DNA from: Candidatus Tayloriibacteriota bacterium
Lineage (GTDB): Bacteria > Patescibacteriota > Minisyncoccia > Phycocordibacterales > PALSA-1337
Direction of reading: 5' to 3'
Assembly: GCA_003151615.1 (NCBI GenBank)
Contig: PLXZ01000001.1
Span: 244,318 to 308,317, forward strand
DNA length: 64,000 nucleotides
Each line of letters opens with the position of its first letter. Position 1 is the stretch's first letter. The notes below the pieces were generated by a model. It was given only the letters and a program-made list of their open reading frames with translations, searched no databases and had not been told where the DNA came from. Of the stretch, positions 20,277-37,782 are shown piece after piece. Both the position numbers and the translations under genes were made by a program.

Positions 20277-20301
20277 CAAATACTAAACACCAAACCAAAC
20301 T

Positions 20302-21073: not shown

Positions 21074-21110
21074 CCTGCATAATAGTGTCGCAAAAAGGAG
21101 ATTGTGCAAC
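21074..21110 (+). repeat. array repeat R2
   Basis: Exact 37-mer. Confidence 0.95.
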
Positions 21111-21294: not shown

Positions 21295-21300
21295 AAAATC

Positions 21301-22041
21301 TCATAGGCCGTTGTATTCAGGATTGCTTGGAGTGAGCACAAGCGACCGAACGTATGAAAATTCTTGACCAAGAATAAATTCAACAGCCTTGGCTAAATCT
21401 TTTGGATGTATCGCGCTATTTCCTTTGGAATTTATAAAGTCGGCGTCTGAAGTTCCATATTCAATATCGGCAGCAACGATGCCAGGACAAAGGTTGGTGG
21501 TTTTAATTCCTAATTTTGCAATTTCCGTTTGCAGAGCCGCTCCAAGACCATGCACAGCATATTTGGCAGAAATATAGGCTGACGGGCCAGTCATCACATT
21601 GTGCATTGGAAAACCCCAGTCTGCTACAATGTTAATAATACGCGCGTCTTTGCTATGTTTGAGAAAGGGGATTGCCTGACGGATCACATCAGCAGTTCCT
21701 ACGACACTGATTCGGAAGAATTCGGTGAGAGCATCACCGTCTATTTTAACAAGCTCGTTTTCCATCTTGCCGAATGCATTGCTAATGAGAACATCAATAA
21801 CATTGGTTTTTAATGACAACTCCTCAAACATTATTGAAATGCTTTTTGTATCTGCCAAATCGCAACGAAGAAGTGTAAAATCAGCAGACCCAAGCCCCTT
21901 TGCAAGGGCGTCCAGTTTTTTTTGATCACGGCCATGCAAATAAAGAGTGAAGCCGAGTTGAGCGAAGTGATGTGCCAAATAAGTTCCGATGCCAGATGTT
22001 GCACCAGTAATTAACATTTTCTTTTTCATCATAAAATTCAT
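21301..22041 (-). CDS. short-chain dehydrogenase/reductase (SDR), intact (S2)
   Basis: MLITGATSGIGTYLA (TGxxxGxG)… SAYISAKYAVHGLG (YxxxK). ORF extends to 22134. Confidence 0.8.
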   Translation of the reverse strand: MNFMMKKKMLITGATSGIGTYLAHHFAQLGFTLYLHGRDQKKLDALAKGLGSADFTLLRCDLADTKSISIMFEELSLKTNVIDVLISNAFGKMENELVKIDGDALTEFFRISVVGTADVIRQAIPFLKHSKDARIINIVADWGFPMHNVMTGPSAYISAKYAVHGLGAALQTEIAKLGIKTTNLCPGIVAADIEYGTSDADFINSKGNSAIHPKDLAKAVEFILGQEFSYVRSLVLTPSNPEYNGL

Positions 22042-22283
22042 TTTTCTAAAATTACGTCGCCATTGAAATACGTTGTCTCCATTATATCCAACTTTTTTAG
22101 AATGTAAAGGATGGACTTGTATTGTGGCTGGCATTTTGGCAAAAATTGCTGTTGCGATATAAAAACACCATTCATCAATGCTTATCAGGGAATTCGAGCC
22201 TTTTTTGAAGTGAGCGTATATGAGTGCGGCTGCTCGTTCCGCTTCGTAGCCGTAGGTTTTAACTTCGTCTCCGTCTCCACGCT

Positions 22284-22539
22284 TTAATACACTTTAACAG
22301 CTAACGGCACAGCTCGTGATCTGGACCTGAATAATTTTCCAGGCTGCCATTGCCAAACGTTTAGTTTCCAAGCGGTAGGTTGCCCGGATGAGAGTAGCAT
22401 TAAAGGGGCGGCTATACGGGCTTTTTTAGACCGTGCGATCCGATGTAAAGTTTGAATGTCTTTTGCGCTCAAATTGGGCAATATTTGCCTTGGATGAGAA
22501 TGCCAATCCCCTAGATATGTCCATTTGCGACACGATGAC
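22284..22539 (-). pseudogene. JAB/MPN metalloprotease C-terminal fragment, N-terminus removed at repeat R3 (S2)
   Basis: GDWHSHPRQILPNLSAKD = HxH-x8-S-xx-D JAMM-like motif; upstream part replaced by repeat sequence. Confidence 0.45.
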
Positions 22540-22576
22540 CCTGCATAATAGTGTCGCAAAAAGGAGATTGTGCAAC
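22540..22576 (+). repeat. array repeat R3
   Basis: Exact 37-mer. TTTGCGACAC at 22524-22533 is an inverted copy of repeat positions 11-20. Confidence 0.95.
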
Positions 22577-22655
22577 CAAATTTGACGGTGCGGATTCAAG
22601 GGGCGATTGGCCCGAGTTCAGTCCAAATAAAATAACAACTTTGAATCGAATCCGT

Positions 22656-23528
22656 ATGACATCATATACTAGAACAAAAAGTATCAGCTCGGATCTTGCC
22701 GATGGTTATGAGAATCTTCGAATTGCATTTGAAAAGCTGGGAGTAAAAATGGACTCTCCATCCATGGACGGCTTCCTGCGAAGAATTTTGTTCCCAGACG
22801 GCAGAAAGATATTTTTCACCGCGAATGCACTTCCATTAAATTGCGCCTCAGCGGTATCACTGGCACATGACAAATTAGCAACATATCAGGTTCTTATTGA
22901 AGAAGGCATTGCTATTCCAAAAGGAATCGCCTTTTTTGCTAGCGAGTTTCATCGTCGTCAAACACAAGCAGAACCTCAATTACTTCTCGAAAATTTACCT
23001 TCAGCAATCCTCGAACACTTTCCGGACATTACAGCGGCGAATTTTAAAGTGATTATTAAACCCGGACAGGGAAGGTGCGGCTATATGGTTAATATCTGCA
23101 AAACTCTTTTTGAAATCCAGTCATTCGCGAGAGATATTTTAACATCGTTTCATTATGGCTTAATCCAAGAATACATAAATGGGCCAGAGTATCGTGTTGT
23201 CATTTTGGATGAAAATCCCATTATCATATATCAAAAATGTTTAAGCCGTCTTGAAAAGGGGGAGAATGATAACCCCGTGCGTGGTGATACTGGCATTTCT
23301 ATTGAACTGGCAAAGGCACCTTTTGAAGTCATCGAAATTGCAAAGAAAGCTCATCGGGCTCTTGGCCTACGGTTTTCAGGTATAGATGTTTGTCTCCCTC
23401 AAAATATTCCGCCAGCAATAGTATTAGAAGTCAATTCGAGTCCTGGTTTTGATGCCTTGGAAGACGATTTTAATTTTGACGCGGAAAAATTAGCGGGTAT
23501 AATTGCAAAAGCGGTGCTTGCCACTTAA
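22656..23528 (+). CDS. ATP-grasp domain protein (RimK/glutathione-synthetase-like) (S3)
   Basis: FKVIIKPGQGRCGYMV…EYRVVILDENPIIIYQK…SGIDVCL…VLEVNSSPGF. Start at ATG 22656. Confidence 0.65.
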   Translation: MTSYTRTKSISSDLADGYENLRIAFEKLGVKMDSPSMDGFLRRILFPDGRKIFFTANALPLNCASAVSLAHDKLATYQVLIEEGIAIPKGIAFFASEFHRRQTQAEPQLLLENLPSAILEHFPDITAANFKVIIKPGQGRCGYMVNICKTLFEIQSFARDILTSFHYGLIQEYINGPEYRVVILDENPIIIYQKCLSRLEKGENDNPVRGDTGISIELAKAPFEVIEIAKKAHRALGLRFSGIDVCLPQNIPPAIVLEVNSSPGFDALEDDFNFDAEKLAGIIAKAVLAT

Positions 23529-23566
23529 TTTGTGTTAAAATTGTGCAAGTTTAGCTTCAAATTCTT

Positions 23567-23935
23567 ATGACGAATCAAAACCATAACATTCCTCGATTAA
23601 ACCTTGTTGCCATTCGGAGCCATCATCTTCAACTTTCTGTCCAGTTTTACTCGCTATTGGGACTGATTTTTGTGAAGGAGTGCCATGGAAAAGGACCTGA
23701 ACACTATTCTGCAAATAACGGTTCTTATGTTTTTGAAATATATCCTTCTAACGGTTCCGCGTCAGTTGAAAATGTTGTGCGCGTTGGGTTCTACATCAAA
23801 CACTTTAATGAGATTCTTGACACGCTGAACAAAAATGGGGCAATCCTACAGGTGCCGCCAAAAATTTCTCCGTGGGGAAGACGAATGGTCGTGCTTGATC
23901 CAGACAACAATCGTGTCGAGTTAATAGAAGAATAA
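23567..23935 (+). CDS. VOC/glyoxalase-family protein (S3)
   Basis: beta-alpha-beta-beta-beta module pattern (HLQLSVQ…WGRRMVVLDPDNNRVELIE). Confidence 0.55.
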   Translation: MTNQNHNIPRLNLVAIRSHHLQLSVQFYSLLGLIFVKECHGKGPEHYSANNGSYVFEIYPSNGSASVENVVRVGFYIKHFNEILDTLNKNGAILQVPPKISPWGRRMVVLDPDNNRVELIEE

Positions 23936-23945
23936 TCGTTTTGTC

Positions 23946-24634
23946 GTGAAATCGCATTGCAATCATGATTATGATGTCCTTGTAGTAGGTGCTGGCCCAG
24001 CCGGTTTGACTATAGCAAACCTTTTAGCCAGGACAAGTTTGAAATTTACCATTATCGAAAAAGAGACTTCTGGCCAAAGGCCAAGCCGAGCGACCGGTTT
24101 ACAACCCAGGCTTTTAGAAATCTTCGAATATATTGGCATCAAGGATCAGGTCATTAAGCGAGCTATCACACTGAAGGGAAGCCAGATATTTGTTGATGGA
24201 AACCAAACTGCCACGGTGTCCTTTTATGATCCAGTTACTAATTCGCACTCGCTTTCTTTAGATCAAGGTGTAATCGAAGCAATGCTTGCCGCAACCTTTC
24301 AGAAAGGTGGAGGCGTCATCGAGTGGGGCAAGCGTCTTGTGGGTCTACGACGGAAAAATGACCGCTGGATGGCAGATATTGCGACAACGATTCCCTCCCT
24401 TGAATATATTACCGCAGACATTATCATTGCATGTGATGGAGGCAAAAGCACTGTGAGAAAATTTGCAAACATTGAGTTTGTCGGGGAAACGTATTCAGAG
24501 ACTTCATTTATTTCTGATTGTCGCATCAGTTCCGATCTCAAGCCACAATATGTTTGCTTTTTATTTTCCAAAGAATATAGGCTCGTGTTAGTTCCATTCT
24601 CTCAGAGTAAATACAAAGTCAGTGGTGGTATGCA
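23946..24634 (+). pseudogene. FAD-dependent monooxygenase, N-terminal ~230 aa; 3' end cut at repeat R4 (S3)
   Basis: YDVLVVGAGPAGLTIANLLAR (GxGxxG FAD fold)…DGGKSTVR; frame continues into the repeat (…HLHNSVAKRRLCN). Family normally ~400 aa. Confidence 0.6.
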
Positions 24635-24671
24635 CCTGCATAATAGTGTCGCAAAAAGGAGATTGTGCAAC
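24635..24671 (+). repeat. array repeat R4
   Basis: Exact 37-mer. Confidence 0.95.
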
Positions 24672-25224
24672 TGGGCATGACAAGGCGAATCTGCTCGGTT
24701 CGTTGCTGACAACACAATTTCAACTTGGCGCAATGGCGCGGGCGAACCGGCCAGAGGAGGAACGTCGTGATTTTTATCTCTTCATTGACGAATTTCAGAA
24801 CTTTTCGACCGATGCTTTTGCTTCGATTCTGGCCGAAGCCCGCAAATACCGCTCCTGTCTTACGCTGTCACACCAATACATTGACCAGTTGCCGCTGCCG
24901 ATCCGGCAGGCGGTTTTTGGCAATGCCGGAACTCTGATTTCATTTCGCATCGGCAACACCGATGCCGAGGTGATGGAAAAGGAATTCGGCGGCGCATTCC
25001 CGGCGGCTGTGCTCGTTGACCTTGACCGCTATGAGGCGGCGGTGAAGTTGCTTGAAGACGGAATGAACCGGGAACCGTTTCGGGCGAAGATGCTGCCGCC
25101 GCTGGAAAATCGCGTTGGCCGGAAGGACAAACTCATCACACTGTCGCGCGAGCGGTTTGCCATGCCGCGCGCGAAGATTGATGAAAAGTTGAAGCGGTGG
25201 ATGGATTCGATGGTTGCTCAATGA
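24672..25224 (+). pseudogene. FtsK/HerA/TraG-superfamily ATPase C-terminal fragment; 5' end missing at repeat R4 (S4)
   Basis: Walker-B-like LFIDEFQNF then …TLSHQYIDQL…FGNAGTLISFRIG; no N-terminal Walker A; begins at repeat. Confidence 0.45.
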
Positions 25225-25236
25225 CAGAGTGTTTAT

Positions 25237-25797
25237 TTATTCATGGCCGAAGCAAAGTTGTTTCATGCCATCCCAAGCGTAAACCAATGCTGATATTACC
25301 GTGCAAACCGCGCACACAAGGAACCAATGCATATTAAGACTTCGATCCCATTTCAACAAAATCAAAAAAATAAGAATCATTTGTGACCCAGTCGCAATTT
25401 TCCCAATGATGTGTGGATTCACTGAAACCTTTCCGACAATCGTGCGTATAATTGTAAAACCAACGAGTAGTAACAAGTCCTGTCCGATTATCACACCAAA
25501 GAGCCAGAGCGGAATATAGTCTAAATAAATACCGTGATAAAAGCTCAAGATGATAATACCTACCGCAAGTAGCAATTTATCCGCAAGCGGATCAAGGATA
25601 GCCCCGATTTCGCTTTTCTGATTGAAGTGTCGAGCAATAAACCCATCCATCAAATCCAAAATTAATATGGCTATTAAAGAGGCTATTGCCAATACATGAT
25701 AAATATTTTCTCCATAGAAAACATAACAAATCAGTCCGATGGAAAAATATGGTATCAGTAAAATGCGCAAAATGGTGATTTTGTTCGCAGTCGTCAT
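25237..25797 (-). CDS. CDP-alcohol phosphatidyltransferase (S4)
   Basis: DLMDGFIARHFNQKSEIGAILDPLADKLL = D-G-x2-A-R…G-x3-D-x3-D motif; multi-TM. Confidence 0.7.
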   Translation of the reverse strand: MTTANKITILRILLIPYFSIGLICYVFYGENIYHVLAIASLIAILILDLMDGFIARHFNQKSEIGAILDPLADKLLLAVGIIILSFYHGIYLDYIPLWLFGVIIGQDLLLLVGFTIIRTIVGKVSVNPHIIGKIATGSQMILIFLILLKWDRSLNMHWFLVCAVCTVISALVYAWDGMKQLCFGHE

Positions 25798-25970
25798 GGT
25801 GTTACACGACCCTCTTATACTACCAATTGTTAATGCCATGATTGTTGAAATAATAGCGTAAACATTCAATTGCAACAATAGTAGGCCGAACTTTCTACCT
25901 TTGTAAAAGAATGCGCGACTGGCTTGCCGCAAAGCGCAAACCTTGACGCCTACCGTGACTGCCTGGCATC

Positions 25971-26143
25971 GTGCAAAATGGCGCGATGGAATCACGTCTG
26001 CCCCGTTTCAACCGCGCGCCCATCGTTGCCCCCATGCAGCTTGAGGAGCGCGACCGCCAGATCATCCGGCTCATTCACCGGCATCGTTTTCTCCGTTCCG
26101 ACCACATTGTTTCGTTCATCGGCGGCAGCCAGCAGCAGATTTT
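25971..26143 (+). pseudogene. N-terminal fragment of a winged-helix-like protein; cut at repeat R5 (S4)
   Basis: …LEERDRQIIRLIHRHRFLRSDHIVSFIGG then the frame enters the repeat. Confidence 0.3.
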
Positions 26144-26180
26144 CCTGCATAATAGTGTCGCAAAAAGGAGATTGTGCAAC
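26144..26180 (+). repeat. array repeat R5
   Basis: Exact 37-mer. Confidence 0.95.
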
Positions 26181-27162
26181 AACGCAATAGAGCCTGGGTC
26201 GAGCCAATTACCAATGCCGTAAGTATAGTCACCAATACCATGCCTGCCAGATTTACCTTGATAACAAATAGCAAAAGGACGCAAATCCAAATGACTATGC
26301 ACCAAGAGAGAATCCTAATTGTTCCCCGCTGCGCCGCCGCCCGGCACATGAAATAGGTGAATGGAAACGCAAGCAATTGAACACCGAGAAGGAATCCGCC
26401 AATGACACTTGTGGAAAGTTTCAATTCCTGTGAAGCGTAAAGTGCGGTAAAAGAAATGACAGCTCCTATCGTATCAGCAATTAGGAAGTAGCCCAACAAC
26501 AAGCCGATGCGATCCCTATTTAACGCTGCAAACATCTCACGAACAGTTATTCTAGGCCGCCCGCGGGCTTTCAAAAGCGGTCGCCGGAGCAAGATCAAGG
26601 CAAGGACTCCAAAAAAAGAATAAAACAGGGACGTAAACAAATAAGGCAGTTTTGAATTTAATCCGAAAGAATTTTGCAAAAAAAACACTACCATAAAACA
26701 CAGGATGCCGCCTAAATAGCCAAACCCCCACGCAAAGCCCGAAAAAGATGCCTTGTCCTTTCCAGTGACAAGGCTATTTAGCAATGAATTATAAATGTTT
26801 CCAGTCAGATAAAAAAGAGCGTTTGCAACAATAAATGCACCCACAATGTGCCAGTAAGATTTACCTATAACGAGAGACAGGGCTAACCCTGAAATAAAAG
26901 AGACGGCGGCTACAATTGAAAAAACATTCCATCTGCCGTTTCGATCAGCCCATCGGCCTGCAAATGGTCCAGCAAGAACAGCAATTAGCGCCGATGCTGA
27001 AAGCAAGATGCCCCATGACAAATCACTGTTTGTTCCCGGCTTGAAAACGAACTGGTAAAGGTAAAGCGGGAACAAATATGCATGAAATATGAGCGTGAAG
27101 GCCGAGCTGGCAAAATCAAACAGGCTGTATGCAACCAGCGGCTTGAGGTTGCTATTGTGCAT
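26181..27162 (-). CDS. MFS transporter whose C-terminus runs into repeat R5 (probably 3'-truncated) (S5)
   Basis: 11+ TM helices; the last residues (…TISFLRHYYAG) are the repeat translated. Confidence 0.55.
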
Positions 27163-28177
27163 CGTAAGGATGATACCAGAAATCCTCCTGCACGATAAGA
27201 TGAACCAGACACGAAAATTGCATTTTTACATCTGCTGGCAGCGGCAAAAGTGAAATACATTCTTCAACTGTTGCCTCCGCTTGTGTCAGTGTATTCAATG
27301 CGAATTCGCGGACATCTTTTGTCCAGATTTTCTCAAGAAGTTTTAACCACTGGTCGCAAGTCAGCATTCGTTGATCCAGTTCTGTGTTAATATCCGAGGT
27401 GCCATGAAGCCGAAGGTAAATAGCCAATGGAAAGGAAAATGTGATGCGCCAAGAATCGCCGGCGGCGTGCCGTTTGCGAAGATTGTCAGGCTGCAAATCA
27501 TGATAGTCGTTTGAAAGTTGATAGAGTTTTCCCATGGCATGACCAAGTTTTTGAAAGCTGTCACCGAGATCGTTTCGGTTTGCAATCACGGCAGCGGAAG
27601 CAAAACTATACTCGAACATTGCGCTGGTTTTTTGATAAATTTGCTCGTTGTATCCCTTGCATATCCATTTGTTTATTGGTTCAACCATTAGGACATCATA
27701 CATCTCGCCGATTGTTAGCTGGCGATAAGTCTTGAGAAGTAGCTTGAGTATTTCTGGTTGATCTATGACTAAATTTATTGCTTCAGCACATAGAAAGTGC
27801 GCTTGAAGGGCTGAAGCCGGGGTTCCTATATTTGCTTGAGATGATTGGTGGCCATGCCTCACATCATCCCCGTCCAATATATCATCCACCAATATGGAGG
27901 CGGCATGGCACATCTCAATGCTTAAGCAGATGTCGAGAAGCATTTTTTCAGGAAGATTTCCAGCAATGTTCGTCGCAGTTTTAAGAAATAAGTAAGATCT
28001 GATTTTCCTGCCCTTCTCAATTCTTTTCAAAATTTCACTTCCCAGAAAAGTATCCGAATAAAGGTCTGCTATTCGCTTGGCAAGCTCTCGGTTAAGTGAA
28101 ACACGAAACTGCCCTAAATGCTCTACGCACGTCATGGTTTCGGTCGTAAAATCTTTTTGTGTTTTGGTTGATGTCAT
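27152..28177 (-). CDS. polyprenyl synthetase (trans-isoprenyl diphosphate synthase) family (S5)
   Basis: FARM LVDDILDGDDVRHG and SARM-like GKLYQLSNDYHD. Confidence 0.7.
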   Translation of the reverse strand: MTSTKTQKDFTTETMTCVEHLGQFRVSLNRELAKRIADLYSDTFLGSEILKRIEKGRKIRSYLFLKTATNIAGNLPEKMLLDICLSIEMCHAASILVDDILDGDDVRHGHQSSQANIGTPASALQAHFLCAEAINLVIDQPEILKLLLKTYRQLTIGEMYDVLMVEPINKWICKGYNEQIYQKTSAMFEYSFASAAVIANRNDLGDSFQKLGHAMGKLYQLSNDYHDLQPDNLRKRHAAGDSWRITFSFPLAIYLRLHGTSDINTELDQRMLTCDQWLKLLEKIWTKDVREFALNTLTQAEATVEECISLLPLPADVKMQFSCLVHLIVQEDFWYHPYDAQ

Positions 28178-28188
28178 AAAATTTATAA

Positions 28189-28794
28189 TTAAGGGGATTC
28201 GGCAGGCTTTTTGCGTTCTGTAATACTAATCAAGAAATGTTGAATTGCCCAACCGATTGAGCAGCCAACTATTGAGCTAATCCAAATAAATAATTCTCGC
28301 CCCCAGTCAGGAGTATAGCAAACCATGATTAAAGCAACAATTGCCACAGAAAGTGCGGCTATGAATTTAATTCTCGGTGAACGCGGCACAATAGTCGCCA
28401 CTGGAAACAATACCAAATATGCAGAACCGTAGAGACTTTTATTTAGACCACCCGTGTGGGCTGTCCACCAGCCAAATATCGATACGGTTTCGATAAAAAA
28501 CAGGACGTTCAAGAAGTCTCGAAGTTTAATGCGTTGATTGAAGTAAATGGCAGCCACACCGGTTGTGGCTTGGAAGATTAAAAACAATGCTTCATGACCG
28601 TGGCCAGTAACTAAATTATCCAGCCACGGCGTGCATATTGATTTTGGCGGAGAAATTCCAGCAAGCCCCGTGTTTTCTCCAGCAAATACTAGCAAGCAAA
28701 GGATTCCATCAGCAATGAAAATGAAAAGTGTCACCCAGACCGGATCGAGTGATTCATTTCGGTTAGACACTGTCATACAGGAAATCAATGCCAT
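28189..28794 (-). CDS. integral membrane protein (201 aa) (S5)
   Basis: Six hydrophobic helices; co-oriented with the prenyl synthase. Confidence 0.5.
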   Translation of the reverse strand: MALISCMTVSNRNESLDPVWVTLFIFIADGILCLLVFAGENTGLAGISPPKSICTPWLDNLVTGHGHEALFLIFQATTGVAAIYFNQRIKLRDFLNVLFFIETVSIFGWWTAHTGGLNKSLYGSAYLVLFPVATIVPRSPRIKFIAALSVAIVALIMVCYTPDWGRELFIWISSIVGCSIGWAIQHFLISITERKKPAESP

Positions 28795-29053
28795 CAGACA
28801 ATACGGAGGTCAAGCATTTTGTATTTTTTGATTTTATATTGCAACGGCACACGTTCTTTTTGGTGAAAGCTTCTGCTTTGATCTGCAAAAAGTCGGAGGT
28901 GGGCAGCGGCTATTTTGGCGCATCACCTCTTATTGCTGAACTGCCGGAGCCGGAGTTTGCCCAATCACCCCCTGAATGCGAACCGTCAAATTTGACACCC
29001 CGCTTTGAAGCTGGGCTAAAAGTTTATCGTTCATATCGGCGATTTTTGATTTG

Positions 29054-29090
29054 CCTGCATAATAGTGTCGCAAAAAGGAGATTGTGCAAC
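29054..29090 (+). repeat. array repeat R6
   Basis: Exact 37-mer. Confidence 0.95.
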
Positions 29091-29184
29091 CCCCCCGACT
29101 GTTGATTATCCAACTGTTTTGGAAAGCAGTATTCTTAATAAAAATGGAGGCAAAAGTTCAATAGGATGTTGTCCAACGAAATGA

Positions 29185-29583
29185 ATGAAAAAGATTTTTA
29201 TAGCCATTATAGTTACATCTTGGCTCGTAATTTTTGCCTTGGGAATAATTCTGTCGCTGGCTACGCCGCATTATATGCAAATGAGTGCGGGAACGATAAA
29301 AGCCAAAAAAGTAAGTATAGAAGGTCAGCCTTTTATCAGAATTGATGGCGAAGCGATGAATTATTTGGGACAGTTTCAGTTGATAAACGTGGATTGTGAT
29401 GATTCCAGCAAGCGAATCACGGTCACTTGTTGCATTATTTATAAGAATCCATTCAGCAAAATTGTGTTAGGTGATGGTTGGCCGGTTTTTTGCCCACTCG
29501 AAGGTGCAAAGCCTGGAAAATACTCCGTGGTTTATAAAAGTTCAGAAGGAGAACAGACAGCCGGGACATTTGATGTCCCGTAA
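29185..29583 (+). CDS. small secreted/anchored protein, paralog A (S6)
   Basis: Signal anchor; shares NY(L/F)GQ(F/I)Q(L/S)INVD…KYSVVYKSSEGE(Q/T)TAGTFD(V/I)P with the next gene. Confidence 0.55.
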   Translation: MKKIFIAIIVTSWLVIFALGIILSLATPHYMQMSAGTIKAKKVSIEGQPFIRIDGEAMNYLGQFQLINVDCDDSSKRITVTCCIIYKNPFSKIVLGDGWPVFCPLEGAKPGKYSVVYKSSEGEQTAGTFDVP

Positions 29584-29620
29584 TCTGCTTTCCAATTGAC
29601 TGCCCAGTGAAACCGTCAAA

Positions 29621-30025
29621 ATGAAAAAGAGATTGTTAGTAGCGTTCGTTTTTACGATTTTGACTTTGATTATCATTGCCGCAGGAGTTGTCCTTCGACT
29701 TGCCACGCCCGCAGAATGGCCAATTCAGGCAGGAACATTAAAAATTGAAAGCTTTAAGATTGGAGATCAGCCATTCGTGATGATAGAAGGGCAGCCGATG
29801 AATTATTTCGGACAAATTCAATCAATCAATGTTGATTTTGACGGAACGAGTAATCGCCTTATTGTTAGCCGATGTCTGGTTCGATGGAATCCATTCAACA
29901 AAATTATTGTAAATAATCAATGGCCCGTCGTTTATCCTCTTGATGGCATAAAAGCAGGTAAATACGCCGTCGTCTACAAAAGCACAGAAGGCGAAACAAC
30001 AGCCGGAACTTTTGATATTCCATAA
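29621..30025 (+). CDS. small secreted/anchored protein, paralog B (S6)
   Basis: Tandem paralog of 29185-29583. Confidence 0.55.
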   Translation: MKKRLLVAFVFTILTLIIIAAGVVLRLATPAEWPIQAGTLKIESFKIGDQPFVMIEGQPMNYFGQIQSINVDFDGTSNRLIVSRCLVRWNPFNKIIVNNQWPVVYPLDGIKAGKYAVVYKSTEGETTAGTFDIP

Positions 30026-30415
30026 CCAAAACAAGTTTTCAATTGACTGCCTACCTCAATCGCCGATAAATGGAACACTCCCGATGAGTATCACCGTCAA
30101 GTTATAGGAGGGTTGCGGCTAGGATTATTCCGAATCCACACTGACCGGACGGTTGTTTTGAACAGTTTGCGCAATTATGGTGAATAAATCGGACGCAATG
30201 TTGCGATAGTAGTTGTGCATTGAAAATAAGAGTCCTCCATGATTGCTTCTCCGGTTTTTTGGTAAACGTCGCTTTAATGTTTTCCGCCGTCATATAACGT
30301 GATGTAATCCTTCTGTTTTTTTGATCAAACAATTCTCCACTTGCCATCGACGCCGTTGGCATATCGCAGCAACCCCAAGTTCCCATCCTTAACCGTAAAT
30401 AACACGAGAGCAACT

Positions 30416-30540
30416 CACCAGAATCGCCCCTTTTTCATGTTGCCGCTTCCGGCAATTCTGCCCGTCTTCATCGAAAGGCTGCGGGGAGATACGCTTCAGG
30501 GTGGCAGTTCATTTCAAACCAACAACCAAAGGAGAAAACT
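30416..30540 (+). promoter_or_regulatory. 125-bp structured leader (copy A) upstream of DUF1281-like gene (S6)
   Basis: ~85% identical to 32103-32232; contains hairpin TTGCCGCTTCCGGCAA and a conserved GGGTGGCAGTTC block before the RBS. Confidence 0.5.
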
Positions 30541-30978
30541 ATGCCCAACTGGTGCAACAACAAGCTCGTCGTGCTTGGACCCGACGAGGACGTTGAACGG
30601 TTCAAGAAAACAGCCATCGGCAATTCGCCGTGGCACACGAAAGAAGAAAAGAAAAGCGTCCTCAACTTCCACAGCCTCGTGCCCGTCCCGCCGGAGATTG
30701 TATCGGCTGGCTATGGGGAGGCCGGTTACGAATGGGAACGGCAAAACTGGGGCTGCAAATGGGGCGCGTGTCATACCCGACTGGTGGACGGACGGAAAGG
30801 CCACCTCGAATACAGCTTCGAAACCCCGTGGTGTCCGCCCATTCCGTTTCTCGAAAAGCTGGGACGGGAGTGGCCGATGCTCACGTTCCTCCTCGACTAC
30901 GAAGAACCGGGCATGAGCTACAAGGGCATCGCCAAAGTTCATGGCGAGGCCGTTGAAGATCATTGCTTCGACCTCTGA
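30541..30978 (+). CDS. DUF1281-like plasmid leading-region protein (MPNWCNN N-terminus) (S6)
   Basis: MPNWCNNKLVVLGPDEDVERF… From memory, this N-terminus matches a family common on conjugative plasmids. Confidence 0.5.
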   Translation: MPNWCNNKLVVLGPDEDVERFKKTAIGNSPWHTKEEKKSVLNFHSLVPVPPEIVSAGYGEAGYEWERQNWGCKWGACHTRLVDGRKGHLEYSFETPWCPPIPFLEKLGREWPMLTFLLDYEEPGMSYKGIAKVHGEAVEDHCFDL

Positions 30979-31007
30979 AACACAAACAACCAACAGAAAG
31001 GAAAATT

Positions 31008-32087
31008 ATGAGTGCAGTCATGGAATCAAAAGATCAAGTCACCCTGTATTACCGTGGAGGTTCATCAGACAAGGTGTATCAGGCCGCGATTGAACCGAGG
31101 GGCGACGAGTTCGTCGTCCACTTCGCCTACGGACGGCGCGGGTCAACATTGACGACCGGGACGAAGACAAGTTCACCAGTGGACTATGACACGGCGAAGA
31201 AAATCTTCACCAAACTCGTCAGCGAAAAGAAGGCCAAGGGCTACATCGAAGGCGAGAACGGCACGCCCTATCAACACCATGAGCACACGGACAAACAGGC
31301 ATCAGGCATTTTGCCCCAATTGTTGAACGCCATCGAAATGGCCGACGTGGAGAAGTTCCTGCACGATGACGCATATTGCGCCCAGGAGAAATTCGACGGG
31401 CGACACATCCTCATCCGCAAGCAGGACGAACACGTCGAGGGCATCAACAAGAAAGGATTGCTGGTCGGATTGCCGGAAACCGTGTCAGACGACATCCGCA
31501 ACCTGTCCGGCAGCTTCATTCCCGACGGTGAATCCATCGGCGATGAGTATCACGTCTTTGATCTCCTCGAATGGAACGGCGAGAACTTGCGTCCGTTGCC
31601 CTACAGGAAACGGCGCGCTCACCTGATGGAATTGCTCTCCGGTTCGCAGCTTCAGTTCATCAAGCTGGTCGGGACGGCGTTCACGACGGCGCAGAAGCTT
31701 GAACTGTGGCACCGGTTGAAGTGGGAAAACCGCGAGGGCATCGTGTTCAAGCGGCTGGACGCGCCCTACACGCCGGGCAAGCCCAACAGCGGCGGGCCGC
31801 AGTTGAAATTCAAGTTCACCGCCACGGTGTCTGCAATCGTTGCCAAAATCAATGTCCAGCGCAGCGTGGAGATCAGTTTGTTCAAGGGCAGGAGCTTGAT
31901 TTCGTGCGGCAACGTCACCATCCCGGCCAATCACGACATCCCCACAGTGGGCGCTGTCGTGGAGGTGCGGTATCTCTACGCCTTCAGGGAAAGCCATTGT
32001 TTGCACCAGCCGGTGTATCTGGGAATCCGTGATGATGTTGAACCCGGCGAGTGCATTGTCCAGCAGTTGAAATTCAAGGCGGAGTAA
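31008..32087 (+). CDS. WGR domain fused to ATP-dependent DNA ligase (S6)
   Basis: WGR (VTLYYRGGSSDKVYQAAIE…FVVHFAYGRRGSTLT); ligase adenylation motif KxDG (EKFDGRHILI). RBS AAAGGAAA before ATG 31008. Confidence 0.7.
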   Translation: MSAVMESKDQVTLYYRGGSSDKVYQAAIEPRGDEFVVHFAYGRRGSTLTTGTKTSSPVDYDTAKKIFTKLVSEKKAKGYIEGENGTPYQHHEHTDKQASGILPQLLNAIEMADVEKFLHDDAYCAQEKFDGRHILIRKQDEHVEGINKKGLLVGLPETVSDDIRNLSGSFIPDGESIGDEYHVFDLLEWNGENLRPLPYRKRRAHLMELLSGSQLQFIKLVGTAFTTAQKLELWHRLKWENREGIVFKRLDAPYTPGKPNSGGPQLKFKFTATVSAIVAKINVQRSVEISLFKGRSLISCGNVTIPANHDIPTVGAVVEVRYLYAFRESHCLHQPVYLGIRDDVEPGECIVQQLKFKAE

Positions 32088-32093
32088 AATCAC

Positions 32094-32232
32094 AGGGGCG
32101 ATTCACAAGAATCGCCCTTTTTTCATGTTGCCGCTTCCGGCACATCTGGCCGTCTTCATGGAAACGGCACGGGGCGATACGATTCAGGGTGGCAGTTCCT
32201 TTCAATAAACCAACAACCACAGGAGCATCACA
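32094..32232 (+). promoter_or_regulatory. terminator hairpin plus 130-bp structured leader (copy B) upstream of ardC-like gene (S6)
   Basis: GGGGCGATTC-ACAA-GAATCGCCC+T6, then the same TTGCCGCTTCCGGCA hairpin and GGGTGGCAGTTC block as copy A. Confidence 0.5.
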
Positions 32233-33090
32233 ATGAAAAATCAAACGTATGACCGTATCACCGACCGAATCATCGCCTTGATGGAGCAAGGCACCGTCCC
32301 ATGGCACAAGCCGTGGAAAGCCCGAACCGGGTTGCCCCGGAACTTCGTCAGCAAACATCCCTATCGCGGCATCAATGTCTTTCTGTTGATCGCCATGCGG
32401 TATGAATCACCGTTCTGGCTCACCTGCCGTCAGGCAAATCAGTTGGGTGCCAGCGTCAAGAAGGGCGAGAAGGCTTGTCCAGTTGTTTTCTGGAAACAGA
32501 CGACCGTTGAGGACAAGCAAACGGGCGAAGAGAAGAAAAAATATCTTCTTCGCTTTTACCACGTTTTCAACACCGCCCAATGTGACGGATTGAAGCTGGA
32601 TTCAGCCATAGCGGAGGCGCTGTTGAGTCCCACATCAAAACCGGAGGACATTGTGGCCGGTATGCCGCAGCCGCCAGTTCTGAAGCACGGCATGACCCAC
32701 GCCTACTATTCCCCCCGTGAAGATTGCGTCAGCCTGCCGCCACGGGAGCGGTTCGAGCGGACGGAGGATTATTATTCTACCGTCTTCCACGAGCTTGTTC
32801 ATTCGACAGGTCACGAAAAGCGGTTGAAGCGATCCACGCTCACGGAATCAGCCGGTTTCGGCTCCAATCCCTACTGCAAAGAGGAATTGATTGCCGAAAT
32901 GGGTGCGGCGTTTCTGTGCGGACAGGCCGAGATTGCCGAGCGGACGATTGACAATTCCGCCGCATATCTCAAAGGCTGGCTTGAACAGTTGCGTCATGAC
33001 AAGATGCTCATTGTGCAGGCGGCGGCGCAGGCGCAGAAGGCGGCGGACTTTGTTCTGGGAAAAAGCGAACCCGCAGAGGTTGCGCCATGA
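32233..33090 (+). CDS. ardC: ArdC-like antirestriction protein (ssDNA-binding N-domain + HExxH metalloprotease) (S6)
   Basis: VPWHKPW…RGINVFLL… and HELVHSTGH zincin motif. Confidence 0.8.
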   Translation: MKNQTYDRITDRIIALMEQGTVPWHKPWKARTGLPRNFVSKHPYRGINVFLLIAMRYESPFWLTCRQANQLGASVKKGEKACPVVFWKQTTVEDKQTGEEKKKYLLRFYHVFNTAQCDGLKLDSAIAEALLSPTSKPEDIVAGMPQPPVLKHGMTHAYYSPREDCVSLPPRERFERTEDYYSTVFHELVHSTGHEKRLKRSTLTESAGFGSNPYCKEELIAEMGAAFLCGQAEIAERTIDNSAAYLKGWLEQLRHDKMLIVQAAAQAQKAADFVLGKSEPAEVAP

Positions 33091-33548
33091 AAGACTTCAA
33101 TCCGAAGGAATTCAAGGTCGTCGCCTTGCGGGAATGTCCGGTGCCGGACGAGATGAAAATCTGTGCGGAACCGCAGCAGGTCGTGGATTATTGGCGGATG
33201 CACATTGCGACACATCCGTATTTCAACCCGGATTGCGAGTGTTTCGTGGTGCTGCTTCTAAACATACGCAGGCGGGTCAAGGGGCATCATCTGGTGTCCA
33301 TCGGAACGATGGACACCATCTTGGTGCATCCGCGCGAGGTGTTCAGCGTGGCGGTTGCGATGAAGGCGGCTTACATCGTGCTCATTCACAACCACCCATC
33401 GGGTGACCCGACGCCAAGCGACGCGGACATCAAGGTCACGCGCGATTTGATTCGCGCCGGCCAGTTGTTGAAAATCGAAGTTACGGATCATGTCATTATG
33501 GGAAATCCTGAATATTCCTCGTTGCGAGGGTTGGGATATTTCTTTTAG
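33087..33548 (+). CDS. RadC-like JAB domain protein (DUF2466) (S6)
   Basis: VLIHNHPSGDPTPSDADIKVT JAMM motif; start overlaps ardC stop. Confidence 0.8.
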   Translation: MKDFNPKEFKVVALRECPVPDEMKICAEPQQVVDYWRMHIATHPYFNPDCECFVVLLLNIRRRVKGHHLVSIGTMDTILVHPREVFSVAVAMKAAYIVLIHNHPSGDPTPSDADIKVTRDLIRAGQLLKIEVTDHVIMGNPEYSSLRGLGYFF

Positions 33549-33797
33549 CTCCGGGTAATGCCGAGTTCACGGGGTGATTCTTCAGAACGCTGAAGAATCA
33601 CCCCTTTTTTATTTCTTCGACTCGGCATTAACGGGATTATGCCGAGCTCGGCATAATGGTTATTTCTACAATTGAATCCCATTAACCCGGACAAGGAAAC
33701 TTGCCGGGTTTTTAATTTCCATTTATTAACTCCAATCCGATTTGTAAATATTTAATAAAAACCCGCATAACAAGTATGCGGGTGGTCGAGGAATCAA

Positions 33798-34193
33798 TCA
33801 GGGACAAACTGGCTGCAAGAGCTTAATGCTTTCCAAAGCATCATTGAAATGGCCTTTTGATGCAAAGGCATCAATCAGCTTGGCAATTTCTTCGAGTGTC
33901 AAAGAACGCCCTGCAAGCTTGACTGCTTCAAGAGCGGTGCTTGCGCGTGCGTCAACTAGACAAGCATTAACCAATTTGTTAATCTCTTCTAGTGTTAAGG
34001 GCCGGTCGGCGAGTTTAGCCGATTCGAGAGCGTCATTAAACCAGCCCTTTGTCACACAGGCATCAATTAATTTCGCGATTTCTTCGTTTGTTAAAGAACG
34101 CTTTGCAAGCTTGGCGGCTTCAAGGGCAATTCCGATCTTTCCATTACGGATTGAAACGGCAATGAGATAATCAGCAGCATCGTCTAGTAACAT
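33798..34193 (-). CDS. HEAT/PBS-lyase-like repeat protein (S6)
   Basis: ~30-aa repeats (RSLTLEEIAKLIDA…GHFNDALESxKL) four times. Confidence 0.5.
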   Translation of the reverse strand: MLLDDAADYLIAVSIRNGKIGIALEAAKLAKRSLTNEEIAKLIDACVTKGWFNDALESAKLADRPLTLEEINKLVNACLVDARASTALEAVKLAGRSLTLEEIAKLIDAFASKGHFNDALESIKLLQPVCP

Positions 34194-34403
34194 AGGTGGC
34201 TCCTTTGGTTTTGATATATGCTGCTGATTCCGTAAGTGGGATCGGTGCAGCAGTCAGAAATCCTTCGCCGCAAATCCCTGACTGCTGAAACGATTCCACT
34301 CATAGCTGCTTGGCAACTGTGGCGAATGCTATCATAAGGCTTTATTATGGTCAAAGCGCTGACCTGGTTATTTGTTAGATTTCTTGAAAAGTTCTTTTAA
34401 TGC

Positions 34404-34970
34404 GTGTATGATTCAGCCGTGAAAATTGTGGGGCTTTGCGGAAGATCTGGCGCTGGGAAAAGCAGCGTAGTCGCAATTGTCCGAGAAAGTCTCCCCGCTG
34501 TGCAGATCATTTCTACTGGCGATGCAATTCGTCAACTGTTAAATAGGCGCGGAATTGAAATCAATCATTACAATCTCCAATCCATAACAAAAGAGATTCT
34601 TGCAGACAGAGGAGAAAATTATATTTCCATTGTTTTTGATCTCATTGATTCTAAATTTCCAATAACTTTAATTGATTCATTTCGTCGCCTTGAAGATGTT
34701 GCGTGTGTAACCAAGGCGTTTGGACAGCCACTAATAATTTCAATCAGCGCGCCCGCAACGGTTCGTTTTAATCGATTGCTTGCCAGGTCAAGACCGTCGG
34801 ACGCTTTAGATGAAGCTTCGTTCAAGGATTTAACATTGCTTGAAAATTCTTGGGGCGTTGAGAATCTGTGTCGGATTGCTGAAATACAAATTGAAAATAC
34901 CAACACATATGCGGAACTGCGTAAGCAGACCCTGGCTGTTCTCCGGAAAGTATTTCAGCCATTCTGCTGA
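34404..34970 (+). CDS. P-loop NTPase/kinase-like protein (S6)
   Basis: Walker A GLCGRSGAGKSS at N-terminus. Confidence 0.5.
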   Translation: MYDSAVKIVGLCGRSGAGKSSVVAIVRESLPAVQIISTGDAIRQLLNRRGIEINHYNLQSITKEILADRGENYISIVFDLIDSKFPITLIDSFRRLEDVACVTKAFGQPLIISISAPATVRFNRLLARSRPSDALDEASFKDLTLLENSWGVENLCRIAEIQIENTNTYAELRKQTLAVLRKVFQPFC

Positions 34971-35037
34971 TAAAATAGGTGCAACATCATATGTATAGGA
35001 ATATTGAGTCATTGGTCTTGCCATTTCTGGATCAAGA

Positions 35038-35074
35038 CCTGCATAATAGTGTCGCAAAAAGGAGATTGTGCAAC
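35038..35074 (+). repeat. array repeat R7
   Basis: Exact 37-mer. Confidence 0.95.
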
Positions 35075-35097
35075 AATATTTAAGACCTACCGAAGCT

Positions 35098-35697
35098 ATG
35101 TGGATGTCTGTTGAATTCGAGGTTCCACGGGGAGGCATGCAGCATATTTCATGGCCGTCATTTTGGCAACGAGTTCTAGTCCGGCAATGGAGTTTCCCAT
35201 TAATTCTTATGTCACCCAAGGCCTTTGCGGAATGGAGAAATAATCAATTCAATATTTTCGGAAGAAAAACCGAACCAGATTCGCACCTTAAGGCGGCTGT
35301 TGGACACGTGCTGGAAATTTTACGCAAATCAAATTATCCAAAAGTTACAGATTGGCGATTGTTTATACATTGGGCACAACGAATTAGGATACAGCGCATT
35401 AAAATTCCCAAAGAGATTGTAGAACCGCCATGCGATCACATTTTACCCCAAGCCAAAAAATGGTTTCGTTTTAGAAGTGATCCCATTCCCAATACTGATT
35501 GCCGCGATGAGTTCTGGTTTGGTGACTTGCCTTCAATTTCGGCACCCGAACCGAATGACGGTTTTCGCCTTGAATTCAAAGCCGTTGTTAATAACTGGCT
35601 TTATATTTATTTGCTGCCGTGGCTTGGATTTATCGGCTTTTTGATAGCATGTGGTAGGTTGCTTTTCAATCTTTGGGAGAAAGGCACTCCCCAATAA
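35098..35697 (+). CDS. hypothetical protein with C-terminal TM helix (S7)
   Basis: ORF from ATG 35098; no family recognised. Confidence 0.4.
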   Translation: MWMSVEFEVPRGGMQHISWPSFWQRVLVRQWSFPLILMSPKAFAEWRNNQFNIFGRKTEPDSHLKAAVGHVLEILRKSNYPKVTDWRLFIHWAQRIRIQRIKIPKEIVEPPCDHILPQAKKWFRFRSDPIPNTDCRDEFWFGDLPSISAPEPNDGFRLEFKAVVNNWLYIYLLPWLGFIGFLIACGRLLFNLWEKGTPQ

Positions 35698-36477
35698 AAA
35701 ACAATCTTCTTACGAAGATTGTTTTGCAAAATCTGGCGACTCAACACTTTACCGTTGTGAAGCTACAGGATTTTGATTTCTGCGCACGTTAAGCATGGCT
35801 GCCCGTCGAGCTTGGTCAAAATCTCTGGCAAAAGCGGCTCTAAATTCCCTCCGCTTCTTCCAGTAATTTTTACTGAATAGATGTTTGATTGATTTCATAT
35901 CGTTTAAGATGCGTAATTTAGTTCAAAGAACAATTTGCCATTTTAAGCTTTGCCCTTAATAAGGTGCTTAAAAAGCGTCCCACGTCTCTATTAAGTAGTT
36001 TAATGCTTATTTATCATTTTTGCAAATTGTAAAAAGTGGCAGATGTTCCTTTCACGAAGGAGAATCGTCTGCAGTCCCCTTGAAAATCCGCGCGACCGGA
36101 TATTGTCAGCTTTTCGAGCTGCGGAATCCGCCCGCGACAAAGATGATAAGGCATATCAGCAGAATCAGGCCAAGCCCACTGCCGCCGATGACGGGACCAC
36201 CAAAGTAAAACCCACCGCCGCCGAACAAGAGAAGCAGAACAACCATGAGTAGTAATAGGTTCATAGGCCGATAAAATAACACGCCATTGCACGGTTGCTA
36301 TGGGGTCTTCACCCCATAGCGCACAAAATGTGAAATATTCCTGTAAAATAGTTACTCTCTTAAACTTGCCAGAATTGGCACGTTTGCCCACCTACTGATT
36401 TTCCCGGCGGAAGATAGGATTTCATTCGGATGCAGTTCGACTTCGCGAGCCGCACCAGTTCTTCACAACCAAATAAC

Positions 36478-36514
36478 CCTGCATAATAGTGTCGCAAAAA
36501 GGAGATTGTGCAAC
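36478..36514 (+). repeat. array repeat R8
   Basis: Exact 37-mer. Confidence 0.95.
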
Positions 36515-36944
36515 GCTTTCACAAAATTGGTTCAATCTGTTCAGCATCATCGGGATCATCGGCAGTCTTTGGGTTGCAATCATCACGCTCCGCTCTGAAG
36601 CCAAAACAAGGCGCGTCGCAAACCTCCTCACCATCACCGCCAACCACCGCGAGATCTGGAAGGAGTTTTTCCACTCTCCACAGTTAGCGCGCGTCATTGA
36701 CCCTTCCGCCGACGTTTCAAAGACACCGCCAACTCCAGCCGAGGAATTTTTCGTCTCTCTGGTCGTTTCCCACATCAGCAGCGTCTATGAAACTCTCAAG
36801 GACGACCTACTAACCAAGCAGGAAGGATTACGTCGCGATGCCGCATGGTTCTTTTCCCTGCCGATTCCAAAGGCAGTTTGGACTGCGACCAAACTGCTGC
36901 AAAATCAAGATTTTGCAGCTTTCATTGAATCTTCTTTGAAGTAG
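36515..36944 (+). CDS. hypothetical membrane-associated protein; 5' end undefined, begins at repeat R8 (S8)
   Basis: Open from the repeat; hydrophobic FNLFSIIGIIGSLWVAIITL then a soluble domain. Possibly 5'-truncated. Confidence 0.3.
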
Positions 36945-37075
36945 TGTGAGAACTTGAATTTGACTGTGGGATATCCAAGGAATCGTCCAAGAAGAAGCCC
37001 CGTCAAGGCGGGGCTGTGAAGTGATGTATTCGTTTCATACATCATCAAATTTCGTTGGGACAAAACAAGCTTCAG

Positions 37076-37330
37076 CTAATCTATGCAGGAACAAAGATGG
37101 GGACGTATTGGAACCCCCTGTGCCCGCACGATGTAACGTTCGCCAGATTGGCGTATTGCCCCAAACTCGACAAGCAGATCGAGATAAGCATTAACAGTCG
37201 TTGAAAAATCAACAACGTTGCTGTGACGGGCTCTCTTGTATGCGACAACCACCTCGCGTGCTGTAAAGCTGTCACGAGAATAGATAATTTTGGCAAGAGC
37301 TTTTTGGTTTTCAATAATGCGTGTGTTCAT
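37076..37330 (-). CDS. small hypothetical protein (84 aa) (S8)
   Basis: ORF track. Confidence 0.35.
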   Translation of the reverse strand: MNTRIIENQKALAKIIYSRDSFTAREVVVAYKRARHSNVVDFSTTVNAYLDLLVEFGAIRQSGERYIVRAQGVPIRPHLCSCID

Positions 37331-37454
37331 ATGTTTGTTAATAGTCTATATTAGTTATACTAAACATTTATCCATTTTGCAAATTCTTCCCAGAGTAATT
37401 TCCCAAACTTGGCTCTCCAGGCTGGGAATTTGGCTTCGGGCAAAATTTTAGAGT

Positions 37455-37491
37455 CCTGCATAATAGTGTCGCAAAAAGGAGATTGTGCAAC
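37455..37491 (+). repeat. array repeat R9
   Basis: Exact 37-mer. Confidence 0.95.
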
Positions 37492-37745
37492 GGATATATG
37501 TATATGATATTAGGTATAATCATTTTAGATACTAAATACAACATGCTTACACTAATCGTATTCTTAATACTCTGTGTTATATCACCACCTCTGGCTTGGT
37601 TTGTATTTATCATTTGGGCTATATACTGGATATATATCTTAATAGTGGCGAGTAGAATCTAAGGAACTAGATGAAGTGCTGCACCAATTCCTGCTGCATT
37701 TGTTGCTGCATGAACTCCTGCTTTTACAACTGGATTATTTTTTAT

Positions 37746-37782
37746 CCTGCATAATAGTGTCGCAAAAAGGAGATTGTGCAAC
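37746..37782 (+). repeat. array repeat R10 (last); followed by an AT-rich stretch
   Basis: Exact 37-mer. Confidence 0.95.

Follow-up and report, generated by a model that had tools for sequence, protein, structure and literature searches.

Adaptation in CRISPR systems is defined by a molecular ruler that gives spacers of ~30–40 nt. Kilobase-sized DNA is inserted by the Cas1-family integrase of casposons, which duplicates its target. For bacteria in the CPR (candidate phyla radiation), Burstein (2016, PMC4742961) noted only "partial cas operons." Here, we describe a locus in Candidatus Tayloriibacteriota (contig PLXZ01000001.1; a stretch of 64,000 nt, hereafter the window) in which cas1 and a diverged cas2 are followed by ten identical copies of a 37-nt repeat (CCTGCATAATAGTGTCGCAAAAAGGAGATTGTGCAAC), and in which the nine segments between the repeats (S1–S9) are 254–5947 nt long. 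We focus on S6 (window positions 29091–35037), the sixth and longest of these segments. Based on sequence comparisons, S6 is probably a gene-sized "spacer," i.e., a random-ended fragment of double-stranded DNA (dsDNA) from an integrative conjugative or mobilizable element, which would have been inserted by Cas1-Cas2 without a length limit. The closest named relatives of the donor family are in Verrucomicrobiota, while the host of the array is a Parcubacteria-like CPR bacterium. In the literature searched, including the 2025 CRISPR classification (PMC12669027) and a 2025 study of horizontal gene transfer in Patescibacteria (PMC12455944), we found no account of arrays that combine a Cas1 linkage with kilobase spacers, although such an absence is no proof of novelty.

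Kilobase-spaced repeats adjoining cas1 and cas2

The array lies 3′ of cas1-cas2 and occupies window positions 19999–37782 (plus strand), with repeats starting at 19999, 21074, 22540, 24635, 26144, 29054, 35038, 36478, 37455, and 37746 (start-to-start distances of 291–5984 nt). An earlier reading of the sequence alone, made by a model without database searches, had delimited S6 exactly: its 5947 nt are bordered by perfect repeat copies 6 (29054–29090, plus strand) and 7 (35038–35074, plus strand). Ten identical 37-nt copies are typical of CRISPR arrays, where near-identical direct repeats of ~23–47 nt are the rule, whereas the segments of 254–5947 nt depart from the short and uniform spacers (~26–72 nt) of such arrays. 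The same array order was found on three host contigs of 0.2–1 Mb.

The first repeat begins 2 nt past the cas2 stop codon. Across 22 loci, the three bases 5′ of the first repeat are conserved as (G/T)-C-(T/C), mostly GGCT, and an A-rich tract is located 15–25 nt upstream. In the window, GCT precedes the first repeat, and the internal repeats have neither a leader-like junction nor an A-rich tract; the leader-like features stay fixed at the first repeat wherever cas2 ends. The cas2 side of the array looks like a leader-repeat junction; S1 would hence have entered last and S6 at an earlier time. Conservation of the repeat among relatives is limited to its TGCA...TGCA ends, and the terminal TGCA/TGCA stem (4 bp) is the only conserved part of its RNA structure, with zero covariation. 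A search of IMG/VR viral contigs with the repeat pattern returned zero matches, and nothing convincing in the way of a protospacer-adjacent-like motif or end motif was found in 19 spacers and in the donor flanks at eight junctions. Each repeat also contains a sigma-70-like match on the minus strand (TGCACA-18 nt-TATTAT; window 20004–20033 and the same offset elsewhere; 9/12 positions), which is probably due to chance, given its absence from the repeats of relatives.

The cas1 gene (18634–19677, plus strand) encodes a protein of 347 aa that matches Pfam Cas_Cas1 (E = 7.6e-68) and the general cas1 model TIGR00287 (NCBIfam; 244 bits against a cutoff of 71.7), and no subtype model. Its active-site residues E161, H221, D233, and E236 are invariant among 29 homologues, and it groups with CRISPR Cas1, apart from casposases. 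The start of the 108-aa cas2-like gene (19670–19996, plus strand) overlaps the cas1 stop. Its product had zero Pfam or NCBIfam matches. A profile of 11 orthologues aligned to that of 14 Pfam-verified Cas2 proteins with a probability of 98.3% (hhalign, E = 2e-14, 80 columns), and weak collinear matches to solved Cas2 structures (PDB) were also obtained. The beta1 motif YDI is replaced by WET, and the catalytic beta1 Asp is not kept. An AlphaFold prediction from the single sequence had a predicted local distance difference test score of 37, which is too low for use. Effector, cas4, and cas6 genes are all lacking from the 64-kb window.

Compared with described CRISPR systems, the locus shares a catalytic Cas1 with a Cas2 homologue, a perfect duplication of the repeat with each insert, a conserved leader-repeat junction, and inserts originating from mobile elements and phages. 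The nearest Cas1 proteins are type I-B/I-D/I-C-like at 28–40% identity, and Cas1 at this distance adjoins ordinary arrays with 72–78-nt periods and 37-nt repeats ending in ...CTGCAAC, which the 37-nt repeat and its TGCA...TGCA ends resemble. Unlike CRISPR systems, this locus and its relatives have inserts of 140–7,672 nt (vs ~30–40 nt), no nearby effector, Cas4, or Cas6, mostly a single repeat, a Cas2 outside the Pfam and NCBIfam models and without the beta1 Asp, and a first repeat placed 2–45 nt past the cas2 stop. A Cas1-family integrase, kilobase-sized inserts, and target duplication are features in common with casposons. In contrast to casposons, there are no terminal inverted repeats and no family B polymerase, cas1 is located outside the inserts, insertion is targeted to a dedicated 37-nt repeat adjoining cas1-cas2, and the substrates are arbitrary fragments. 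The layout is also reminiscent of integrons, in that a fixed platform beside an integrase gene carries an array of kilobase-scale inserts separated by a recurring site; however, no recombinase, whether of the IntI tyrosine type or another, lies in or beside the array, there are no imperfect palindromes of the attC kind, and the inserts are gene-cutting fragments rather than whole promoterless cassettes.

Mobile-element origin of segment S6

From position 30336 to its last base at 35037 (≥4.7 kb), S6 is collinear with integrative elements at 73–83% nucleotide identity (blastn). Judging by these alignments, this part is one contiguous element fragment, the right end of which cuts a gene. Positions 30336–33548 match the related loci L010–L013 at 80–83% nucleotide identity, and 30336–30980 correspond to L013 7724–8369 at 79.8% (blastn). 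Further right, 33749–35037 align with L177 9330–10620 up to the last base of S6, 47 nt into a 512-aa gene. In L010–L013, the genes are ordered as T4CP-like (type IV coupling protein) ATPase, cargo, Replic_Relax relaxase, DnaG-type primase, DUF6166, a small open reading frame, DUF1281_C, WGR-ligase, ArdC, RadC, cargo, an ~1000-aa DUF87/TrwB ATPase, and a serine recombinase or IS110. DUF1281_C holds the same position in L011–L013, and the ligase is syntenic in L010–L013, L175, and L177. In L177/L178, RadC is followed by a 41-aa gene, a 130-aa reverse-strand homologue of the 131-aa protein gene of S6, the kinase (74% identical to that of S6), and the 512-aa gene.

The sequence-only reading had assigned S6 to a mobile element with an ArdC/RadC/ligase/DUF1281 block, and this is borne out by the order DUF1281-ligase-ArdC-RadC-130 aa (reverse)-kinase, which is contiguous in elements with a relaxase, a primase, T4CP-like ATPases, and a recombinase. 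The ArdC block of related elements is located 2–3 kb downstream of the relaxase and primase. The closest ArdC proteins (85–93% identical) are abundant in metagenomes, and the four with organism names are from metagenome-assembled genomes (MAGs) of Verrucomicrobiota. All interior genes of S6 compared are full length relative to their homologues (ArdC 285/285 aa, RadC 153/154, ligase 355/356, and kinase 188/184). The search for a separate plasmid carrying the block, as the same reading had proposed, yielded identical ArdC on the three host contigs and on no other contig. A comparison of PLSDB plasmids with all of S6 gave 68–72% matches to the WGR and zincin genes only, without synteny.

Element homology begins within the 3′ remnant of the element's 95-aa gene (30336–30403, plus strand; blastn). 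The gene calls made earlier for the DUF1281-like, WGR-ligase, ArdC, RadC, and P-loop kinase proteins were all confirmed by Pfam. These are DUF1281_C (Api92-like; 30541–30978, plus strand; PF18406, E = 1.8e-9), a 355-aa WGR and ATP-dependent DNA ligase (31020–32087, alternative start 30963, plus strand; WGR 8e-7, DNA_ligase_A_M 5.5e-11, with KFDG in the translation and matches to NCBIfam ligase models), ArdC (32233–33090, plus strand; ArdcN 5.5e-34 and MPTase-PolyVal 8.9e-37, zincin HELVH), a RadC-like JAB protein (33087–33548, plus strand; RadC E = 4.2e-37, HNHPSG), and a 188-aa P-loop kinase-like protein (34404–34970, plus strand; AAA_17/AAA_33, Walker A GRSGAGKS). Within the last 47 nt of S6 (34991–35037, plus strand), the gene that comes next in the element (512 aa in L177) begins, and repeat 7 severs it after 15 codons. 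The remaining protein had been taken for a HEAT-repeat protein. It has 131 aa with three ~37-aa helical repeats (33798–34193) and matches no Pfam or NCBIfam family above threshold; as it is encoded on the minus strand, the genes of S6 are not all co-oriented, contrary to the initial description.

The left part of S6 (29091–30335, plus strand) encodes two paralogous small membrane-anchored proteins (29185–29583 and 29621–30025) that were missing from that description. Neither has a Pfam or NCBIfam match, both are singleton protein clusters, and these 1.25 kb show no homology to the sampled elements. Given that the homology starts in a gene remnant at 30336 and the left 1.25 kb are untraced, S6 stems either from a donor already rearranged at this point or from two captures that merged when a repeat was lost.

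S6 had further been described as GC-rich (guanine plus cytosine), which holds for its 3.2-kb core (30336–33548) and not for the 5.9 kb as a whole. The GC content of the whole segment (0.489) equals that of the host flanks (0.490; z = −0.06), whereas that of the core (0.548) exceeds all 400 size-matched host windows (z = 3.0), and the tetranucleotide profile of the core is nearer to the mobile-element backbone (z = 6.75). The core is flanked on both sides by DNA below the GC content of the host (29091–30335, 0.406; 33549–35037, 0.432), as are most other array segments. The low-GC right part is cargo, which is also low in GC in the donor-type element (L177, 0.42–0.46).

Two copies of an ~130-nt regulatory module are present in S6 (plus strand). 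Copy 1 (30398–30526) comprises the palindrome TTGCCGCTTCCGGCAA, a CA-rich leader, and AGGAG, and copy 2 (32086–32214) is preceded by the ligase terminator hairpin (32094–32119). In the elements, copies of the module, up to three per element, are located ahead of the genes for DUF1281, ligase, and ArdC (L013 7793–7923, 8640–8761, and 9884–9993; L010 8615–8773 and 9855–9994). Its palindrome TTGCCG-CTTC-CGGCAA is invariant, the L175/L177 variant TTGCCAG-ATC-TGGCAA keeps the symmetry, and a CATACGCTTCA box is also present. From its sequence, the module resembles an operator/promoter common to early genes under joint regulation. As a candidate Frpo-like single-stranded DNA (ssDNA) promoter, the module was rejected: the DNA-fold z scores (0.06 and 0.48) were no better than those of shuffled sequences, and a fold z of −3.7 at copy 2 stems from the ligase terminator. 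The alignment of the module likewise suggests an ordinary operator/promoter/leader rather than Frpo.

The ArdC of R388 has been described (PMC7213743), as have leading-region anti-defence islands (PMC11541004). The S6 block resembles such leading or establishment regions in its ArdC, with an ssDNA-binding N-domain and an HExxH zincin, situated beside RadC, ligase, and DUF1281, in having several genes each behind the same regulatory module, and in the occurrence of the block within elements that carry a relaxase, a primase, and a T4CP. It differs in that the module lacks an Frpo-like ssDNA promoter fold and in that the block is a severed fragment without attached transfer genes. The leading-region character given to the block in the sequence-only reading is thus at most putative.

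Donor fragments in most of the array and their junctions

One element family supplies at least four of the nine segments (S2, S4, S5, and S6), plus the edges of S3 and S7, which agrees with the origin of CRISPR spacers from mobile elements or viruses. The proposal that mobile DNA bearing anti-defence genes is stored in an array attached to cas1-cas2 is partly supported and extends to most of the array. S4 (24672–26143, plus strand) runs from the 3′ third of a T4CP (TrwB-like) gene to the 5′ start of a relaxase gene. Its start (24672–25208) matches L013 1657–2193 at 86%, beginning at the first base after the repeat, and its end (25923–26143) matches L013 4665–4885 at 89%, covering the first ~150 nt of the relaxase region and ending at the last base before the repeat. 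S5 (26181–29053, plus strand) holds an MFS gene without its last 245 nt, a polyprenyl synthase gene, a membrane protein gene, and the 3′ end of a PEGA-type gene. Positions 26181–28473 correspond to L174 4921→2584 at 86%; the match sets in precisely at the repeat edge, at a point 245 nt short of the MFS stop. L174 has the membrane protein, polyprenyl synthase, and MFS genes immediately next to a RadC-ArdC pair from this element family. S2 (21111–22539, minus strand) carries a radical-SAM gene fragment and an SDR gene, which are cargo of the same family in inverted orientation. Positions 21113–22050, with the SDR gene and the start of the radical-SAM gene, match L175 8917→7980 at 89.7%, and in L175 this type of cargo comes after ligase-ArdC-RadC. 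The end of S7 is the relaxase-primase intergenic region of the element.

The end of S5 (28949–29050, matching L175 11312–11413) and the start of S3 both derive from the 3′-terminal part of the PEGA-type gene of the element, in opposite orientations. A 34-nt inverted match accordingly connects the first bases of S3 (22577–22610) with the end of S5 (28961–28994; L175 ~11312–11413). By their sequences, two independent captures in opposite orientation end ≤~60 nt apart, which may point to a preferred break point in the donor.

Homology to the element reaches 0–2 nt from the repeat edge at the S3 start, both ends of S4, the S5 start, and the ends of S6 and S7. It stops abruptly at the repeat edges, and donor flank and repeat share no similarity. 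Genes severed at the borders encode MFS, T4CP, relaxase, radical-SAM, and the 512-aa protein. Since the segments are non-collinear and the severed genes are not resumed across the repeats, the array is not a single element peppered with insertions; outside the array, the window contained no element homology. Several donor variants are indicated by the four distinct sets of cargo beside RadC (S2, S3, S5, and the right part of S6). Genes with metabolic and transport functions are also present in the segments (isochorismatase, SDR, ATP-grasp, and polyprenyl synthase). For S1, S8, and S9, comparison with the sampled elements gave no homology, and their proteins formed singleton clusters only. S9 (37492–37745) is the shortest segment (254 nt, GC 0.33) and encodes merely an ~40-aa, very hydrophobic peptide (~37544–37663).

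Related Cas1 loci

At least 120 relatives of Cas1 were found at 55–79% identity, and the named ones are from Patescibacteria/Parcubacteria MAGs. A Cas1 pattern scan of GTDB genomes retrieved two close relatives only, single-protein patterns being narrow. We examined 36 loci with a Cas1 ≥50% identical, ~20 of which have enough downstream DNA for a repeat check. In these ~20 loci, a homologous 37-nt repeat of the form CCTGCA-N7-GTCGCA-N-AAAGG-N3-TTGTGCAAC is located ~335–350 nt past cas1, just beyond the cas2-like gene, and the first repeat follows the cas2 stop by 2–45 nt. The chromosomal neighbourhoods are unrelated, and no effector genes were found within ±10 kb.

For the majority of related loci, the available DNA contains one repeat copy; others have several. 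Two copies are 3.27 kb apart in L003/L004, 0.48 kb apart in L179, and 7.7 kb apart in L100, where the insert encodes phage tail-fibre and minor-tail proteins and an IS256-type transposase fragment, severed at the repeat, comes after the second copy. On an 876-kb contig (L181), eight perfect copies are separated by spacers of 213, 2526, 144, 579, 4007, 386, and 140 nt that cut genes. One of the L181 spacers has a match in the T4CP region of the element family of S6, and the locus also holds a five-gene operon-like insert. The 19 spacers of five loci measure 140–7672 nt (median ~1.4 kb); none is CRISPR-sized, and no locus has a period of ~70 nt. An L181 spacer (11704–12495) contains a CoiA-type competence nuclease gene. 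In L096 (Cas1 63% identical), a divergent post-cas2 sequence (TATTATTTACCGCCTTTAAAAAAGGAGCTACTGCAAC) is found at 11345–11381, with a second, inverted copy bearing one mismatch 1.4 kb downstream (12793–12829).

Proposed mechanism and alternative explanations

Capture of S6 would proceed by integration of long dsDNA at the cas2-proximal (leader-side) repeat, with Cas1-Cas2 catalyzing two staggered transesterifications. Gap repair would then duplicate the repeat, as in CRISPR adaptation, with the spacer-length ruler absent. The ArdC, RadC, and ligase genes would be passengers of the captured fragment, not a host-selected function. Within the Cas1 family, casposases already act on kilobase substrates. 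Most likely, the array serves as an inherited log of past contacts with elements of the donor type. Its use, as a memory read out by an unlinked or unfamiliar route (e.g., long transcripts or an unlinked effector), as a means of gene gain, or as a tolerated by-product, is far more speculative in each case than the capture itself.

Several points weigh against capture of S6 by Cas1-Cas2. Integration by these proteins is deduced from the anatomy of the locus only. The Cas1-Cas2 complexes described so far measure their prespacers, and this ruler would have to be bypassed here. The single repeat in most related loci implies that insertion may be rare or accidental, and the elements found, at only 73–90% identity, are probably no more than relatives of the actual donor. 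S6 could represent two captures fused via repeat loss or come from a pre-rearranged donor, and the three host contigs may be re-assemblies of overlapping data. With no effector in the window, an immune role is unsupported.

Site-specific integration in tandem could produce a similar layout if the 37-nt repeat were an attachment (att) site at which whole elements integrated successively and then decayed, the adjacency of cas1-cas2 being incidental. Island arrays between direct att repeats are known, tmRNA genes are classical hotspots for island insertion and the locus is situated beside tmRNA/smpB, and the donor elements encode serine recombinases. Nonetheless, we regard this scenario as highly improbable and as already largely refuted by the junction positions, given that the segments end at varied internal, in-gene positions of the element and not at its termini. 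Moreover, an integrase or recombinase is found in none of the nine segments, ten out of ten repeats are perfect, the repeat is fixed relative to the cas2 stop in ~20 loci with unrelated neighbours, and spacers of 140–254 nt are too short for elements. That the array results from the misjoining of unrelated contigs at a short CRISPR repeat is scarcely credible. The assembly is a short-read MEGAHIT assembly (k141_1209207), and CRISPR regions are hard to assemble; however, the 37-nt repeat is far below the final k (141), three large contigs have the identical order, independent assemblies of relatives are alike (including the 876-kb contig with eight copies), and the flanks form a single coherent host chromosome.

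A third possibility retains insertion by Cas1-Cas2 and differs in what was selected, namely useful genes in a reduced-genome symbiont, gathered by an integron-like gene-capture platform. The full-length interior genes of S6, the metabolic and transport genes of the segments, and the five-gene insert in L181 speak for such a platform. We nonetheless consider it unlikely, as genes are cut at random at the borders, several segments (140–254 nt) are too short to encode anything, and there is no sign of host expression or purifying selection. The sources are also strongly biased to one mobile-element family and phage, a pattern that, based on the sequence matches, resembles the origins of CRISPR spacers more than those of integron cassettes. 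The sequence-only reading had left open whether S6 was a trophy of past encounters or an instance of gene capture. Because S2, S4, S5, and the S3 and S7 edges come from the same element family, the former fits better than the capture of an anti-defence island as such, S6 being nothing special among the segments.

Chromosomal surroundings of the locus

The array flanks belong to one coherent host chromosome, and at 90% clustering, the host L11 groups with that of a Candidatus Parcubacteria MAG. Upstream of cas1 are smpB, tmRNA, an NYN protein gene, a sortase gene, and the L11/NusG/SecE cluster. The tmRNA (Rfam, 90.8 bits) and smpB are directly 5′ of cas1 (window 17653–18587); relatives of the cas1-cas2 module occupy quite different neighbourhoods. 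Downstream of the array are genes of the MarR-like, MFS, and HlyD/MacB exporter types, together with FtsH. A 192-nt inverted repeat (71%) is explained by two MacB-type permease paralogues that face opposite ways (45976–47214, plus strand; 50205–51425, minus strand) and are surrounded by HlyD-family genes. Within the first MacB gene, the 3′-terminal positions 47157–47213 recur at 49179–49235 as a direct repeat of 57 nt (89%). Two long near-perfect hairpins, after ftsH (56810–56933, 34-nt arms) and between nusG and rplK (12529–12641, 26-nt arms), are likely terminators or attenuators.

Implications for CPR bacteria and Cas1 evolution

The locus and its relatives represent a natural Cas1-Cas2 lineage that apparently inserts fragments of 0.14–7.7 kb with clean duplication of the repeat. 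In a broader and rather doubtful form of this proposal, the Cas1-Cas2 of the clade would be an active, leader-directed, ruler-free integrase that archives kilobase pieces of DNA from invaders or neighbours (conjugative elements and phages), the archive would be used without a canonical CRISPR RNA effector (through long-homology or antisense defence, or through integron-like gene gain), and the system would be an intermediate between casposons and CRISPR. Insertion of such fragments by this lineage would in itself provide a living intermediate for the proposed casposon-to-CRISPR transition, and a CRISPR integrase would be usable as a sequence-independent, site-specific inserter of gene-sized DNA, which is of interest for genome-writing tools. 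The view that CPR bacteria are "devoid of CRISPR" would also shift. The "partial cas operons" of CPR genomes (PMC4742961) may be functional capture modules, and array finders may have missed such modules because of their limits on spacer length. S6 shows which mobile elements are met by ultra-small cells, and the recurrence of one element family, with named relatives in Verrucomicrobiota, in two different CPR arrays offers a handle on host or neighbour relationships of these organisms.

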